Shown piece by piece: positions 22,935-64,000 of a stretch of 64,000 bases of DNA (its first letter is position 1; the number at the start of each line of letters is the position of its first letter). The stretch comes from an uncultured Acidobacteriota bacterium (GTDB lineage: Bacteria > Acidobacteriota > UBA6911): contig CAVXIH010000005.1 in assembly GCA_963761825.1 (NCBI GenBank), forward strand, positions 74,992 to 138,991. Direction: 5' to 3'. The translations under genes and the position numbers were made by a program. The notes beneath the pieces were generated by a model. That model made no database searches, was not told the DNA's origin, and worked only from the letters and a program-made list of their open reading frames with translations.

Positions 22935-24411
22935 CTGGACACCCACTTTTTTATCGATTTATTTTGGCTCATTCCATGAGTTCGCCATTAGTTATATGAA
23001 ACGAGGTGAACCATGGCTCTGCCCCGCAAAAAATATGTCAAGGAAGGAAAAGAAGGCGTCTATCACTGCTTCACCCGGTGCGTCCGCAGGGCCTTTCTTT
23101 GCGGCTACGACACCCTCACACAACGCGACTTCTCCCACCGCAAAACGTGGCTCGTCGATAGGTTGCGGCATCTCGCGGCTATTTTCGCTATCGATGTCTG
23201 CGCGTACGCCGTCATGGAGACTCACTACCACACTATTCTGCGCACTCGCCCCGACATCCTGGCAACCTGGTCCGATTCGGACGTCGCACTCCGCTGGCTG
23301 ACCCTCTTCCCTCTCAAGGATGCCGCCGTGCCGCCTGCCGACCTGCAAATCCGCGCCCTGGCCGATTGCCCCGAACGTATCGCCGAACTGCGTAAACGAT
23401 TGGGTAGCCTGAGCTGGTTCATGGGTCGGCTTAACGAATTCATCGCACGCGCTGCAAACAAAGAAGATAGCGTCAAAGGACGGTTCTGGGAATCCCGATT
23501 CAAATGCCAGAACCTGCTCGACGATGCGGCCATCGCCGCTTGCATGGTTTATGTCGATCTTAATCCTATCCGCGCCTCTCTCGCTGCCTCTCCTGAAGAA
23601 AGCAACTTCACCAGCATCCAGGAACGAATCCGCGCATGGCATAACGAAATGATGAACTCAGACTCCGTTCCCTTTGCGTCCCAGTCAAAACAGCCAGCTC
23701 TGCCTCTTGCAACCGCAATATCCAAAAACTCGAGGATATGACCCCTATTTCCAACGCTATTCCCGAAGGCGTCCCCTGCCATTCCATTCTTCCTCCTTCC
23801 TCTTGCTGGCTGTGTCCTATCCAATCCGATGCCCATCGCCGCGGCATCCTTCCGATGACGGCAACCGAGTATTTCGATCTCGTGGATAAATCAGGTCGCT
23901 TTCTACGGTCCGACAAGCGCGGCGCCATCCACCCCGGTCTTGCACCCATCCTCCTGCGGATCGGGGCCAATCCGGAAATGTGGAGCAACACCGTTTCCCG
24001 CTTCGGATCCAAATTCCGCCTCGCAGCCGGTCTGCTTTCCAGTATGCGCAGTTTCGCAGATCAGCTCGGCAGGCGTTGGCTCATCGGCGTTGCCGCGGCT
24101 CGAGCTGCCTTTGCAGTCTCGCCACCCCAATCGGCCTGAGTTCTATTCTTCCATCTGTCCATCCTCCACAGATCCAGCGAAATCGGATGATCCCAGCGCA
24201 CGATTCCTGCATCGTTTGACTATCTCTATTCCCGAGACTGCTCTACGGTCCTGCACTCTGTCGATTTGTCTTATCCACTGACCCCATCCGTTTCCTCCAT
24301 CATTAATCGCCCTTTCCCGCAAAGATCCGGATTTGCTAAACAAAAATTATAAATAGTGGGTGTCCAGGCTTTTCTCATTGTTATAAATTGTCATAAATAG
24401 TGGGCGTCCAG
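22935..24411 (+). mobile_element. HUH Y1 transposase element with terminal inverted repeats
   Basis: Left CTGGACACCCACTTTTTTAT (22935-22954); right ATAAATAGTGGGTGTCCAG (24349-24367) and a second copy ATAAATAGTGGGCGTCCAG (24393-24411). Confidence 0.75.
23013..24139 (+). CDS. REP-associated/IS200-like tyrosine transposase (Y1_Tnp), in two frames joined at 23738-23741
   Basis: YHCFTRCVRRAFLCG, AYAVMETHYH (HUH), GRFWESRFK, MVYVDLNPIRA (catalytic Tyr), EYFDLVDKSGR. Confidence 0.88.
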
Positions 24412-48055: not shown

Positions 48056-49261
48056 TTAGCACAATCCGCGGAAGGGAGACAGGGCGCGGTCGAGGACACC
48101 CAGGGAATAGGTGATGGCGACTCCATAGTTGGTGATCGGGACGCGGGCTTCGCGGCAGCGCATAATGCGGGAAATCACTTCGCGCCGGTTCAGCATGCAC
48201 GCGCCGCACTGGACGATCAGCTGATAGGAACTAATATCTTCGGGAAAATCGTGTCCTTGCCGGTGCACAAATTCCAGGTCCACTCCCGTATACTGCCGAA
48301 TCCAGCGGGGGATCTTGACTCTTCCGATGTCTTCGCCGATCGGGTGGTGCGCGCAGGACTCCAGAACCAGGATGCGGTTTCCGGGCTGCAGCGTGTCGAT
48401 GGTTTTGACTCCGCGCACGAACTCCTTCAGATCGCCTTTCAAACGCGCAAACAGGATTGAAAATGACGTCATCGGGACCTGGCTGGGCGTATCGCCCGCG
48501 ACCCGCAGGAACGCCTGGGAATCCGTGACTACGAGGGCCGGCGGATTTTTGAGTTTATCCAGCGCATCCTGCAGTTCGCGCTCTTTAACCACCATGCAGC
48601 AGGAATCATGATCCAGGACATCGCGGATCGACTGCACCTGCGGCAGGATGAGTCTTCCCTTCGGGGCTTCCAAATCGATGGGGACGACCAGGACCACAAC
48701 TTCGCCGGGATTGATCAAATCGCCTAATACCGGGGGAGAGTCCATAAATTCCTCCGGCGCTGTGCGTATCAGGGCTTCCCGAAGCTCAAGCATGCCTTTG
48801 CCCTGGCTGGCGACCGTCTCCACGACGGGGAGATTGCGGGACTTGAGATTTTGCAGCACCTCCGCGCGCGGCGCACCGCAATCGCTCTTATTGAACACCA
48901 CGATGACGGGCACCTTGCGTTTCAACATTTCAGCCAGGATGCTCTCTTCGAACTCTCCCCAGCAATTTCCTTCTGCCACCAGGATTCCCATATCCGTGCG
49001 CTCAAAAATAAGCCGCGTCCTCTCGGCCCGCATTTCACCCAGGGCGCCGACGTCATCGATGCCTGCCGTATCGATAAACAGGACTGGCCCGAGCGGCAGC
49101 AGCTCCATTGGTTTTTCCACCGGATCCGTGGTCGTTCCCGGCACATCCGAAACAATGGAAACCTGCTGGCGGGTCAACGCATTCAGCAGCGAGGATTTAC
49201 CCACATTGCGCCGGCCGAACAGTCCGATATGCAGCCGCATTCCTTTCGGCGTGTCTTTCAT
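48056..49261 (-). CDS. hydF: [FeFe]-hydrogenase maturation GTPase
   Basis: GRRNVGKSS, GTTTDPV, DTAG, APKGRLILPQ, TDSQAF, ESCAHH, QCGACM. Confidence 0.97.
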   Translation of the reverse strand: MKDTPKGMRLHIGLFGRRNVGKSSLLNALTRQQVSIVSDVPGTTTDPVEKPMELLPLGPVLFIDTAGIDDVGALGEMRAERTRLIFERTDMGILVAEGNCWGEFEESILAEMLKRKVPVIVVFNKSDCGAPRAEVLQNLKSRNLPVVETVASQGKGMLELREALIRTAPEEFMDSPPVLGDLINPGEVVVLVVPIDLEAPKGRLILPQVQSIRDVLDHDSCCMVVKERELQDALDKLKNPPALVVTDSQAFLRVAGDTPSQVPMTSFSILFARLKGDLKEFVRGVKTIDTLQPGNRILVLESCAHHPIGEDIGRVKIPRWIRQYTGVDLEFVHRQGHDFPEDISSYQLIVQCGACMLNRREVISRIMRCREARVPITNYGVAITYSLGVLDRALSPFRGLC

Positions 49262-50676
49262 TCTTTTCCCTCAGGTTCGCAGGCGGTGACCCGAGCCGGG
49301 CAACGTTCTCGGGAGAGATCAGCTGATCGAATTGTTCCGGAGTCAGGCTTCCCTCTTCCAGCACAACCTGGCGCACTGTTCTTCCTTCCGCGCGCGCGCG
49401 GCGCGCAATGGCTTGAACCTTCTCATAGCCCAGCAATGCAACCAGCGCCGTGAGAGTTGCGGTGGCGCCTTCCACATGCGTTCGGCAGCGGGACTCATCC
49501 GCCGTAATCCCCGCCACGCAGTGCTCACAAAAGATGCGGCAGGCATTGCGCAAAAGATCCAGACTGCCGAGCAGCGCATCCGCAACCAGCGGCAGAAAGG
49601 CGTTCAGCTCCAGGTTGCCCATCGCGCATGCCTGAGCAATGGCTTGATCGTTGGCCATCACCATGATCGCCGCTTGGGATACCGCCTCCGGAATAACCGG
49701 ATTCACCTTGCCGGGCATGATGGAGGACCCCGCCTGGCGCGCCGGCAAATGGATCTCGCCGAAACCGGCGTCGGGTCCTGAAGACAGCAGACGCAGGTCC
49801 GTCGCAATTTTCAATAGATTGGTTGCGCACGCTTTCAGAATGCCGCTGACTTCGACAAAAACATCGGCGTTCTGCGTACACTCGACAAGGTTCTCGGCGC
49901 GCGCCAGCCCCATTCGTGTAATTTCCCGCAATTGATCGACGACGCCGAAGATGTAGCGCCTGGGAGCGGCAATACCGGTCCCGATAGCCGTACCTCCGAG
50001 ATTGACGATGCGCAGCCTCTCCTCGCACTTATAGATGCGCCAGCGGTCCCGTGCGAAAGCCTCCGCATACGCGCCCATTTCGCGGCCCAGGGTAGTCAGT
50101 ACCGCATCCTGGAGCTGTGTTCTGCCGACCTTCACGATGTGCGCGAATTCCTGCTCCTTGCGCTGGAACTCTTCAAGCAGGCGCACTACGTCGCGCTGCA
50201 AAAGCCGCAGCAATTGAATGCCCGCCACTTTCAGAGCGGTCGGATAGGTATCGTTCGTGGATTGATGCAGATTGATATCTTCGAGCGGGCTAACCGTTGA
50301 ATAGTCGCCCAAAGGTCTTCCGAGAATCTGCAGGGCGCGGTTGGCCAGGACCTCGTTGACATTCATGTTCGTGGAGGTGCCGGCGCCCCCCTGAAGAGCA
50401 TCCACCCGGATAGCGGCGTCCAGATGCCCTTCCATCATTTCCGTACAGGCGGTTTCAATAGCGCTCGCCTTTTCATCATCCCACCAGCCCAGTTCATGAT
50501 TGGTTCTGGCGCATGCAAGCTTCACGGCGCCATAGGCATGGATGAGCGCAGGATTGACCGGCCGCAGTGCCAGCGCGAAATTTTCAATGGCGCGTTCGGT
50601 GTAGATGCCGTGCAGCGCATCCGCCGGCACGTCCCGTGAACCCAGAAGATCCTGCTCTGTTCGATACAGTCATCAT
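49197..50676 (-). CDS. aspA: Aspartate ammonia-lyase; indel at the 5' end and probably at the 3' end
   Basis: QGGAGTSTNMNVNEV, QSTND, KVGRTQLQDA, GSSIMPGKVNPV. Confidence 0.9.
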
Positions 50677-50697
50677 AGCCGGTAATTCCACAATCGC

Positions 50698-50751
50698 GTA
50701 CCTGGTTATACTGTCCCTCGCATAGCAACAGGGGACAGTATAACCAGGTAC
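50698..50751. mobile_element. Empty non-autonomous copy of the inverted repeats that flank the 62678-63346 transposase
   Basis: GTACCTGGTTATACTGTCCC (50698-50717), 14-nt spacer, GGGACAGTATAACCAGGTAC (50732-50751). Confidence 0.85.
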
Positions 50752-50763
50752 AGATCTTGAGGG

Positions 50764-52191
50764 CTAAAAATAGAGATCGCGGTCATCTGTCTGGCGTATT
50801 TGACGCAGCCGCTTTTCCAGTTCTTCTTTTTGCGGACCCGGTTCAAGCCGTGCCAGTTCTGCCTGTATCAGCGCTTCTCCCGCTTTCCGAGTCTCGGGCG
50901 ATGCATAGTCCACCAGGTACTCCGTCAGCGTGGAAATGGCATTGGGCGTGCAATACCGCTTGATGAATCCCGGAATGGCAAATTCCATAAAATGCTCGCC
51001 CGTGCGCCCGAGCCGGTAGCAGGCAGTGCAGAAACTCGGCACATAGCCGTCCTGCATGAGTTCTTGCATGACTTTGTCCAGCGACCGGATATCCCCAAGC
51101 TCGAATTGTTCCCGGTCGGCAAGCTGCGTGTCTTCCTTTTCCGTGTATCCGCCGATTTCGATCCGGCTGCCCGCATCGATCTGAGAGACGCCGTACTTCA
51201 TCAGTTCCCGACGCAGCGGCGCGTTTTCGCGGGCGGTAAGGATCAGTCCCGTGTAGGGAACAGCCAGGCGCAGCGTTGCGATCACGCGCTTAAAATCGCC
51301 GTCGCTGGACAGATCCCAGATCCGGGGAAATTCACGCCGCACGCCGGACGCAGGCGCGGGAAGCTGATCGTATGCGGCCCGACTCCATAGCGCTTCTGGA
51401 GATACAAGGCGTGCGCCACAAGGCCCAGCACTTCGAACCGCCAGTCATACAAGCCGAAAAGCACGCCGATCCCCACATCGTCGCACCCGGCTTCCAGAGC
51501 GCGGCTCAATCCGTCGAGCCGGTACAGGTAATTGCCCTTGCGCGTGCGCGGCGAATGCACGCCGGCATAGGTTTCATGATGATACGTTTCCTGGAAAATC
51601 TGATACGTGCCGATCCCGGCCGCTTTAACGATCCGGTATCCCTCATGATCCATGGGCGCCGCATTGATATTGACTCTGCGGATTTCCCCGTGCCCGTTGC
51701 GCGTGGCATACACCGTGCGCACGCTTTCGGCCATGAAATCGGCGTCGTATCCTGGATGCTCGCCGAAAACCAGGATCAGCCGCTTTTGCCCCGAAGCTTC
51801 GAGCTTCACCACCTGTTCGCGCAATTCTTCGAGTGTCAGAGTGCGCCGCACCGAGAGCTTATTGCTGCTCTGAAATCCGCAATAGGAACAGTCATTGACG
51901 CACTCGTTGCCCACATAGAGAGGAGCGAAAAGCACAATCCGGTTGCCGTAGACGGTTTCCTTCAGTTTCTGGGCAGTCTGAAAAACGCTGTCGAGCAGCT
52001 CGGGATCATCCGTGCGAAGAAGGACTGCAGTCTCTTCAACGCTGAGCGGCTGCTTGGCAAGGCTTTTCGCGATGATGTCCTGCACCCGGCTTCGCTCCGG
52101 CGGCGCGCCGGCGAGCAGCTGCATAAAATATCCGTCATCGATAAAATCAACGGCGCCCTTGACTTAGATCCATTTTGGGCAATCCAGACAT
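50764..52191 (-). CDS. hydG: [FeFe]-hydrogenase maturation radical SAM protein, frameshifted
   Basis: FAPLYVGNECVNDCSYC, FQETYH, HTISFP, SQIDAGS, PSFCTACYR, YCTPNA. Confidence 0.95.
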
Positions 52192-62613: not shown

Positions 62614-63438
62614 CGTACCTGGTTATACTGTCCCCATTTCAAAAAGACAACCCAGGTCAGATTTAAGCTTTTTCAAATCAGGCTTTTTTATCCAATTGCA
62701 GCCTATATTTGCCCTGAGCCGATCTTCGATACTCTTGTTCCAGTTTTTTTGTGATTTCCTTTGGGCCGCAAAATCGCCCAGTTCTTGTAGCCCTTCGGAT
62801 TCGATCGTGAGCGTCTCTTTTGGAAGCTGCCTGAATCAGGTATTCCCGCCATGAGTACCGGTCGAAGTGTTTGCGCCAGAGATCCATGTCGAGTAGGCCT
62901 GAATGATCTTCTCCTGTAAGATGGGCGCGCGCACTTGACCATTCCCAATCTAACGGATTTTCCACGATGCCCGCGCGAACGGGATTTAGTTCTATATAGG
63001 CAAGGGCCTCCCACATATCGTAAACGGGACATGAGAAGAAGCGGCCTTGCCACAGATGGCCGGTCCGATTGCAGCGGAGGTTCTGATACCGTGCAAAATC
63101 TCGATCCAGGGTGCGCATAGCCTGGGACAAAGAGTCTTCCGTTCGTGGAATGGGGGCCTGATGTACATGATTGGTCATGAGGGAGTGACCCAGCACCATC
63201 ACCTCTTTGGCTTCCACCTGGCCCTCCAGCAATCCGAGGTAGAATTTGCGGTCTTCATCAGAAAAAAAGACATTCTGGCGGTGATTCCCACGCTGGGTCA
63301 CATGGTGAACGTAACCAGGAATTACTAGCCGGGGCTTTCTCGCCATGCTTGTAATGTTTCACGAGCTGTCTTATTATTTCACCAAAATGCAGGAATTATC
63401 CAGATGACGAGGCAAAGGGGACAGTATAACCAGGTACG
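62614..63438 (-). mobile_element. HUH Y1 transposase element bounded by a perfect 22-bp inverted repeat
   Basis: CGTACCTGGTTATACTGTCCCC (62614-62635) and GGGGACAGTATAACCAGGTACG (63417-63438). Confidence 0.85.
62678..63346 (-). CDS. REP-associated tyrosine transposase (Y1_Tnp)
   Basis: HHVTQRGNHRQ, LMTNHVH (HUH), GHLWQGRF, AYIELNPVRAG, WEWSS. Confidence 0.93.
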   Translation of the reverse strand: MARKPRLVIPGYVHHVTQRGNHRQNVFFSDEDRKFYLGLLEGQVEAKEVMVLGHSLMTNHVHQAPIPRTEDSLSQAMRTLDRDFARYQNLRCNRTGHLWQGRFFSCPVYDMWEALAYIELNPVRAGIVENPLDWEWSSARAHLTGEDHSGLLDMDLWRKHFDRYSWREYLIQAASKRDAHDRIRRATRTGRFCGPKEITKKLEQEYRRSAQGKYRLQLDKKA

Positions 63439-64000
63439 GGAATTTTGAATTCATAGAGGGCATCAAACGGATTTTCTACAGGGAGGCGACGGATTTTCCC
63501 GAATCCCGCTTTTTCGCCGAGCATTTTTATTTCAGACCCCTTAATTGCCGCACCATAGCCGGGGCCTCCTTCTGTCAGGACGGAACTCATGCAATAAAAG
63601 AGGGACACGCCATAATTCCAGTTTGCATAGGTGTGGCCCGTGCTTTCTTCAATTTTTTCGGGAACGTTTGCTTCCATAATCAGACAGGAACCGCCTCGTT
63701 TGAGCGCTTGTTTCACCGAAACAAGCACCCGGACCGGGTCGGCCAGATGATGCAATGCATAGAAAATCGTAATCAGATCGTAACGCCCTGCCGGCAAGGT
63801 AAAGCCATCGTACGTGTCGAAATGGATGCGGCCGCCAAACCCGGCTGAAGCCGCATTTTTTCTGGCCTTGTCAATGGAAGTTGCAAATACGTCAAGGCCG
63901 AATACTTCGGCTTTCGGAAAAGCCCCGGCAATCGCGATGGAGGCAAGCCCGCCGCCGCATCCCAGGTCCAGAGCTGCACCGCCCTTGTTCAGCCGCGCCA
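63396..64000 (-). CDS. Class I SAM methyltransferase, 5' part outside the window
   Basis: The open frame from the window end reads LDLGCGGG...YDLITIFYALHHL; its last residues are encoded by the transposon inverted repeat. Confidence 0.85.
   Translation of the reverse strand, partial: ARLNKGGAALDLGCGGGLASIAIAGAFPKAEVFGLDVFATSIDKARKNAASAGFGGRIHFDTYDGFTLPAGRYDLITIFYALHHLADPVRVLVSVKQALKRGGSCLIMEANVPEKIEESTGHTYANWNYGVSLFYCMSSVLTEGGPGYGAAIKGSEIKMLGEKAGFGKIRRLPVENPFDALYEFKIPVPGYTVPFASSSG

Follow-up and report, generated by a model that had tools for sequence, protein, structure and literature searches.

The hydG-aspA intergenic region carries a 54-bp hairpin-forming inverted repeat

The analysed window is a 64,000-nucleotide stretch of an acidobacterial genome and corresponds to C5:74992-138991 of a 4.6 Mb assembly in 16 contigs (G000). 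At window positions 50698-50751, two copies of the 20-mer GTACCTGGTTATACTGTCCC face each other. The left arm (50698-50717, plus strand) is an exact match and the right arm (50732-50751, minus strand) is its exact reverse complement, with a 14-nt spacer or loop, TCGCATAGCAACAG, between them (50718-50731, no strand assigned). The arms pair into a perfect 20-bp stem, and the complete doublet folds at -22.3 kcal/mol as DNA and at -43.6 kcal/mol as RNA. An exact search returns four matches to the 20-mer in the window, two per strand, and none in 100 dinucleotide-preserving shuffles, even with 3 mismatches allowed. All four positions listed in a first-pass annotation of this DNA are thus exact where chance predicts none, and the spacer length and the names of the two neighbouring genes given there are likewise correct. 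The spacer occurs in no other copy of the repeat family described below, its overlap with the spacer at C10:96091 being limited to AGCAACAG. A terminator and promoter scan gave no call of either type at 50698-50751, where there is also no T-run, the doublet matched no Rfam family and a plasmid search gave no match.

Both neighbouring genes lie on the minus strand. hydG is present as two overlapping frames, a 5' part (51282-52124) and a frameshift-separated 3' part (50764-51342) whose stop codon at 50764-50766 is followed by the doublet after 12 nt. The frame shifts near TTTCCCCGGATC at about position 51320, and the orthologue in G018 is a single 474-aa ORF; the split across 50764-52124 reflects a real frameshift or else a homopolymer error of the assembly. 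The longest aspA ORF (49197-50630) begins with a GTG at 50630, and the doublet sits 67 nt upstream of this start. This ORF is without about 17 N-terminal profile positions. An ATG upstream of it (window 50630-50690, minus strand) is +1 out of the AspA reading frame, two in-frame TGA codons precede CTG TAT CGA in the aspA upstream region, and the corresponding region of G018 shows the same ATG offset.

The same repeat bounds the gene of an HUH/Tyr protein with a RAYT fold

The other two matches in the window are the terminal inverted repeats of a gene-bearing element, both exact copies of the 20-mer, located at 62615-62634 (plus strand) and 63418-63437 (minus strand). The perfect inverted repeat extends to 22 nt (62614-62635 and 63417-63438). 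The unit measures 823 bp with an interior of 783 nt and contains a single gene for a 222-aa protein (62678-63346, minus strand) and no second ORF. The protein matches PF01797 (Y1_Tnp, E = 2e-7) and carries the motifs NHVH (residues 59-62), HLWQ (97-100) and YIELNP (117-122); residues N59, H60, H62, W99, Y117, N121 and P122 are invariant among 35 homologues. The AlphaFold2 model has a mean pLDDT of 90, and its top PDB match in a Foldseek search is 4er8_A (4ER8; E = 1.3e-7, target-normalised TM-score 0.73), the structure of E. coli TnpA-REP bound to a REP hairpin. The TnpA proteins of IS608 and ISDra2 are the next structural matches. At the sequence level the TnpA-REP match has an E value of 0.011, and the score against the NCBIfam RAYT equivalog NF047646 is 59.1 bits, under the cut-off of 80. 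The C-terminal region (139-221) is helical in the predicted model and yields no Pfam HTH match even at E <= 1.

The window enzyme is an intact HUH/Tyr protein with a RAYT fold. Because of its TnpA-REP-like fold and of the NHVH, HLWQ and YIELNP motifs, which are those of TnpA-Y1 subclass 2.1 (Table 1 of PMC6006769), we assign it to this subclass. Subclass 2.1 equals what Bertels et al. 2017 (PMC5581495) call Group 1 RAYTs, and Quentin et al. 2018 (PMC6006769) give its correspondence to the TIRYT class as probable. [quoted passage not shown]

The leader that separates the start codon from the right repeat (63347-63417, minus strand) contains the motif GAAATAA(A/T)-N9-CTCG(C/T)GAAAC, which is also conserved upstream of a paralogue (L002) and of orthologues (L064-L067). 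It is a candidate promoter or autoregulatory site. The right repeat falls within the last 14 codons of a SAM-methyltransferase ORF (63396-63998, minus strand), so that the element supplies the C-terminal tail of that protein (...VPGYTVPFASSSG).

Convergent repeat pairs form a genome-wide family

A genome search for the 20-mer, proposed in the first-pass annotation, reveals a dispersed family with 69 exact copies in G000 and 81 at up to 3 mismatches. The copies are arranged as 34 convergent pairs, always in the order plus then minus, and 13 singles. The transposase gene lies within one of the pairs, and the remaining 33 are gene-less with spacers of 6-113 nt. What had been described as full and empty forms at the same locus is instead a population of pairs spread over the genome. 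In most pairs complementarity continues for 5-8 nt past the 20-mer with the consensus AAWCG...CGWTT, reaching 11 nt at C13:158158. The flanks of the pairs are mirror-symmetric, and no direct-repeat target duplications flank them. Several doublets at unrelated loci share a loop together with their outer arms: the loop TTTTTCTCGGA is present in six doublets, in both orientations, and CTTTTTTTCAG in three. The sharing of loop and outer arms is the signature of copying of the whole 61-67-nt unit, and subfamilies of the doublet have clearly multiplied. Two of the 33 gene-less pairs, C3:62292-62367 and C16:303719-303794, are identical together with their flanks; one lies near a contig end, and the locus is either duplicated or assembled twice.

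A single 29-nt arm folds at -0.1 kcal/mol, on par with shuffled sequences, in agreement with the earlier description of the repeat as not itself palindromic. Whole doublets fold at -22 to -30 kcal/mol (DNA) with z-scores of -8 to -13, and a subfamily consensus doublet reaches -29.9 kcal/mol (z = -12.7). The unfolded lone arm and the strongly folded doublet indicate that in the window family a hairpin arises only from the pair.

Pairs are found preferentially just past genes, as counted with a crude ORF-based gene call. About 20 of the 34 lie 3-25 nt past a stop codon, 10 fill gaps between convergent genes and only 2 are located between divergent genes. Among pairs between co-directional genes, 14 of 17 are closer to the upstream stop than to the downstream start (p = 0.013). 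The hydG-aspA copy follows this near-stop rule.

Arm perfection appears tied to an intact cognate gene

A survey of 41 relatives finds the 20-mer in abundance only in G000, G005, G018 and G020, all members of one genus. G018 is the closest relative, with about 93-96% DNA identity to G000, and G005 shares about 80%. G000, in which the gene is intact, has 69, 7, 3 and 2 copies with 0, 1, 2 and 3 mismatches, respectively. The corresponding numbers are 17, 15, 9 and 4 in G018, where the cognate gene is a truncated pseudogene at the syntenic site, and 18, 21, 9 and 3 in G005, where no cognate gene was found. The exact fraction of 85% in G000 (69/81) differs strongly from that in G018 (17/45, Fisher p = 8e-8) and in G005 (18/51, Fisher p = 5e-9), the two genomes with an absent or broken cognate gene having 35-38% exact copies. 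G020 has 19, 8, 1 and 2 copies and thus 63% exact ones, with no cognate gene found in an assembly that is 87% complete.

Many doublet sites are orthologous between G000 and G018; G000 and G005 have almost none in common. At 8 sites shared by G000 and G018, divergence amounts to 8.5% in arms, 29.5% in loops and 12.7% in flanks, values that carry a bias to conserved arms due to the selection of shared sites by recognisability. The arm differences at these sites are all on the G018 side, with exact arms in 16 of 16 cases in G000 vs 5 of 16 in G018 (p = 7e-5). The same variant is present on both arms in 4 of about 14 variant doublets, far above chance, and one such two-arm change originated in situ, at the orthologous site G018 C18:368094/368149. 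Arm perfection thus appears tied to an intact cognate gene, a correlative pattern resembling descriptions of REPIN-RAYT systems.

The first-pass annotation had named, as a case against a mobile element, repeats conserved at orthologous positions in genomes without the transposase. This case is found in part: G018 has many sites in common with G000, and G005 and G020 still contain the repeat. On the other side, G018 keeps the cognate pseudogene in synteny, and the repeats in G018, G005 and G020 are visibly decaying.

Doublet sites are occupied by other sequences in sister species

The hydG-aspA spacer region is hypervariable across 11 relatives. G018 carries an unrelated 166-nt palindromic insert and G005 another insert, and the region is short and plain in G006, G010 and G013. 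The comparison of this junction that had been suggested earlier therefore reveals differing spacers but defines neither target nor boundaries, as none of the 11 relatives offers a clean empty site for the hydG-aspA copy and no alignment sets the insertion boundaries. The variation points to an acquisition of the doublet in the G000 lineage.

The same picture is obtained at other loci. G018 was searched with the joined flanks of 20 G000 doublets, and G000 with G005 doublets; the doublet was replaced every time and a simple gap was never seen. Presence and absence of doublets vary between species at many sites, with each "empty" site filled by other sequence. With sites replaced rather than cleanly empty, insertion boundaries and target stay undefined and movement can be deduced from distribution only. 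The replacing DNA is often another hairpin family, for example of the TTTCGGAGTGCGGCAGC...GCTGCCGCACTCCGAAA type or palindromes built from hexamers or heptamers. Intergenic slots that hold differing hairpin families in sister species are mostly located just past stop codons (for example L016 1335-1500, L054, L055, L056 and G000 C9:583908-584135). In the G018 orthologue of G000 C9:298036, the left arm and loop of the doublet are replaced by such an element. A separate insertion of the two arms around resident DNA was considered and rejected: the sole similarity between a loop and an empty site is non-significant, 513 of 2000 shuffles scoring equally.

Three paralogues each have their own repeat family

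G000 contains three TIRYT paralogues, the window gene and two others with 54% and 34% identity to it, and each is associated with an inverted repeat and a dispersed doublet family of its own. The C9-type paralogue (C9:560364-561154) is flanked by AATTTCGGTGACAGTCACCATAACCTCGAAATTA, with about 39 dispersed matches, and the C7-type paralogue (C7:178041-179223) by GGGGTCAGGTCTGGAAAATT, with 24. Arm polarity is identical between gene-bearing and gene-less forms within each of the three families. The C7 family includes about 10 gene-less doublets with conserved interiors, and the C7 paralogue gene itself is possibly divided between two ORFs. Partial self-complementarity is seen in the C9 repeat (dG -4.9 kcal/mol).

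A protein search places the window gene in an orthologue clade at 67-94% identity, with no orthologues among 137 representative genomes of the class. Four orthologues (73-76% identity), fetched with their flanks from records outside the whole-genome comparison set, carry the same 20-mer on both sides, with at most 1 mismatch and in the same polarity. They lie in four different gene neighbourhoods, so that together with G000 the same 20-mer bounds the gene in five genomic contexts. The intergenic site of one of these units (L066) holds no such unit in G000 and has a hexamer-built palindrome instead, which indicates that the gene-bearing unit is placed differently among relatives, its ends staying letter-perfect.

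A second, independent TIRYT remnant lies beside rex in L061. This contig end, from a MAG labelled Actinomycetes (G137), comprises rex and a 44-aa TIRYT remnant with 90-95% DNA identity to G000 and is probably chimeric or mis-binned. G137 was considered as a close relative free of doublets and rejected: all flanks of 32 G000 doublet loci are missing from this MAG, and the genome is consequently uninformative on the family.

The GGGGWSAS motif is present in the window arm as GGGGACAG, at the inner, loop-proximal end. In related TIRs (L004, L010, L011 and the C7 and C9 types) it is located at the outer end, and the box GGGGACAGT likewise occupies the outer repeat end in the TIRYT systems of G001, G011 and G017 and in the C9 and C7 families. 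In G011 the box forms part of an intra-repeat mini-hairpin, GGGGACAGT-CACC-ACTGTCCCC. The window-family arm reads, from outside to inside, GTACCT-GGTTAT-ACTGTCCCC and, when read backwards, is homologous to the C9 repeat (GGNGACAGT...ATAACC). This homology implies that the box is loop-proximal and that two arms are needed to form its 9-bp duplex. Recognition of this duplex by the enzyme, if it occurs, would explain the excess of pairs over singles and the co-variation of the arms. No current model accounts for a box at the loop-proximal end here and at the outer end in related systems.

The hydG-aspA sequence as a probable gene-less TIR dimer

We conclude that the 54-bp sequence is very probably a gene-less TIR dimer, that is, a REPIN-like, hairpin-forming and non-autonomous form of the TIRtron, in which the single-copy TIRYT gene lies between the same 20-22-nt arms. 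The arrangement was already described in 2013 for TIRtrons and TIRYTs, and the present system is a clear new example and no new kind. The proposal of a MITE-like derivative in the first-pass annotation is borne out by the gene-less form with the same arm polarity, the 33 dispersed pairs and the shared-loop subfamilies. Its background statement, that subgroups flanked by inverted repeats are known from surveys with their mobility undemonstrated, is accurate (PMC3733652, PMC6006769), and we found no bench evidence for any TIRYT in the literature searched.

The proposed mechanism would start from single-stranded DNA, for example the lagging-strand template, in which the two arms would pair into a hairpin of 20-28 bp. 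Pairing would recreate the 9-bp duplex GGGGACAGT/ACTGTCCCC, which in related systems is formed within one repeat. The TIRYT enzyme would then bind the doublet hairpin and copy or move the unit in trans by HUH/tyrosine cleavage and rejoining; its own gene, as a 783-nt "loop", would rarely move. Action of the enzyme on the folded doublet is proposed from homology to TnpA-REP and IS608-type proteins and from the gene-linked conservation, and mobility of the unit is deduced from its distribution. The hydG-aspA copy probably arrived after the split from the closest sequenced relative and, once transcribed, would form a very stable stem-loop 12 nt past hydG.

Some features of the family would also fit stem-loops selected by the host after genes, as stabilisers of mRNA 3' ends, attenuators or a protein-binding site, with the Y1 gene only historically associated. 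The clustering of pairs 3-25 nt past stop codons and their bias towards the upstream stop are expected for such elements, as are the many sites orthologous between G000 and G018, the persistence of the repeat in G005 and G020 without a cognate gene, and the conservation of arms over drifting loops, including compensated arm changes in G018, which has no working enzyme. As a full explanation we nevertheless regard host selection as unlikely: the same exact 20-mer surrounds the Y1 gene in five genomic contexts, each paralogue has one repeat family, G005 has a largely different set of sites, the members of young subfamilies have identical loops at unrelated loci and arms decay upon gene loss. The hydG-aspA copy is also without a T-run, a terminator-like call or an Rfam family. 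Host selection is compatible with a TIR dimer rather than exclusive of it, co-option after spread being possible. A host function of the hairpin could explain conservation without ongoing transposition, given that the repeat persists without an intact gene and that many orthologous sites are old.

The first-pass annotation had also considered an excision scar, which would mean that a second full element at hydG-aspA lost its interior by excision or local deletion, with both ends and 14 nt remaining. Arm polarity is indeed that of the full element, the spacer ends in 7 nt (GCAACAG) with a weak resemblance to the interior end of the full copy (GCAAAG), and several other spacers start with CATTT, as does the left end of the full element's interior. 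HUH/Y1 excision, as established for IS608 and ISDra2, reseals the donor seamlessly and does not leave both ends behind. Moreover, no spacer has BLAST similarity to the 783-nt interior and the resemblance of the hydG-aspA spacer to it is unconvincing, the gene exists once and occupies the syntenic position in G018 and the L061 fragment, and doublet arms reach 5-8 nt past the repeat of the full element (AAWCG/CGWTT). The genome contains 33 such units, with diverse spacers and mostly abutting stop codons, and we consider a scar very improbable. An assembly artefact or a coincidental inverted repeat has a negligible probability despite probable frameshift errors in the assembly such as the split hydG, since no match is expected by chance, 69 exact copies exist in the genome, orthologous genes in four independent assemblies lie between the same arms and the repeat fills three sister genomes; the artefact that the first-pass annotation had allowed for is excluded on the latter two grounds.

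Taking the TIR dimer as the preferred interpretation, we tentatively suggest a broader joint reading, which we hold to be possible rather than probable. A Group 1 RAYT, from a class credited in the literature with few or no associated repeats, would here sustain a REPIN-like population whose arms stay letter-perfect only while the cognate gene is intact. The GGGGACAGT/ACTGTCCCC duplex would be split between the arms and flipped, leaving only the doublet as substrate, and doublets would compete with at least two unrelated hairpin families for post-stop slots, the families replacing one another between sister species.

Relation to known systems

The system most closely resembles TIRtrons. It has an HUH/Tyr gene with long terminal inverted repeats, not GTAG REP hairpins, a GGGGWSAS motif in the repeat, repeats elsewhere in the genome as singles and dimers, and several divergent paralogues per genome, as in Koribacter versatilis with three. 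The NHVH, WQ and YIELNP motifs are present and the protein length fits the TIRYT range of about 220-240 aa. It differs in the number of repeats, with 69 exact copies of the flanking repeat compared with a mean of 12 occurrences of the flanking 16-mer for Group 1 RAYTs, and in the dispersed families that accompany all three paralogues instead of one of three as in Koribacter. A further difference is the position of the GGGGACAGT box at the inner, loop-proximal arm end instead of the outer one, and another may be the C-terminal part of the window protein, in which a Pfam HTH or DnaA_C-like domain was not detected.

Similarities to REPIN-RAYT systems (Groups 2 and 3; Bertels and Rainey 2011, PMC3116915) include a single-copy Y1 gene between inverted copies of a dispersed doublet repeat, one repeat family per paralogue, vertical inheritance with sites common to close relatives and decay after gene loss, extragenic positions after genes, and 4ER8 as the closest structure. 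In contrast to REPIN-RAYT systems, the window repeat alone is no palindrome and lacks a 5' GT[AG]G tag (the arm begins with GTAC). The hairpin is formed by the doublet only, whereas the repeat of REPtrons is an imperfect palindrome, and the window protein belongs to another subclass (59 bits vs the NCBIfam RAYT cut-off of 80). The "double-foot" REPs of subclass 2.4 (PMC6006769) similarly form one long hairpin with mirror-image feet and could arise by a central deletion within an inverted dimer (PMC6006769). The window family differs from them in enzyme subclass, in the lack of GT[AG]G feet and in the lack of copies inserted inside the transposase gene.

With IS200/IS605 elements (IS608, ISDra2) the unit shares the HUH/Y1 catalytic core and fold, a presumed single-strand, hairpin-dependent chemistry and the lack of target duplication. 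In those elements the subterminal hairpins are non-identical and lie on one strand, the tyrosine motif is Y-x3-Q, the gene is present in many identical copies and tnpB often accompanies it; the window unit shows none of these features and instead has Y-x3-NP, one cognate gene copy and perfect inverted-repeat ends. Classical MITEs, which depend on DDE transposases, differ from the doublets, whose flanks are mirror-symmetric and without target-site duplications.

Within the RAYT family, the TIRYT (Group 1) branch is the largest and has been studied least. This acidobacterial genome is a tidy natural system for their study, with three paralogues that have their own families and 69 letter-perfect arms in one of them, and the sister genomes with decaying repeats and a lost cognate gene provide a useful natural contrast to the genome with an intact gene. 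The combination could guide first biochemistry on recognition, in particular on whether a duplex box formed only upon arm pairing is what is recognised. It also bears on whether REPIN-like partnerships between host and element reach beyond Proteobacteria, and for genome annotation it accounts for a class of strong stem-loops just past genes.

The window contains a fourth, more distant Y1-like ORF (23013-24139, plus strand) with the motifs THYH, FWESRF and YVDLNP, which resemble subclass 2.3. Its Pfam match is weak only, and it is followed by a second ORF in another frame.
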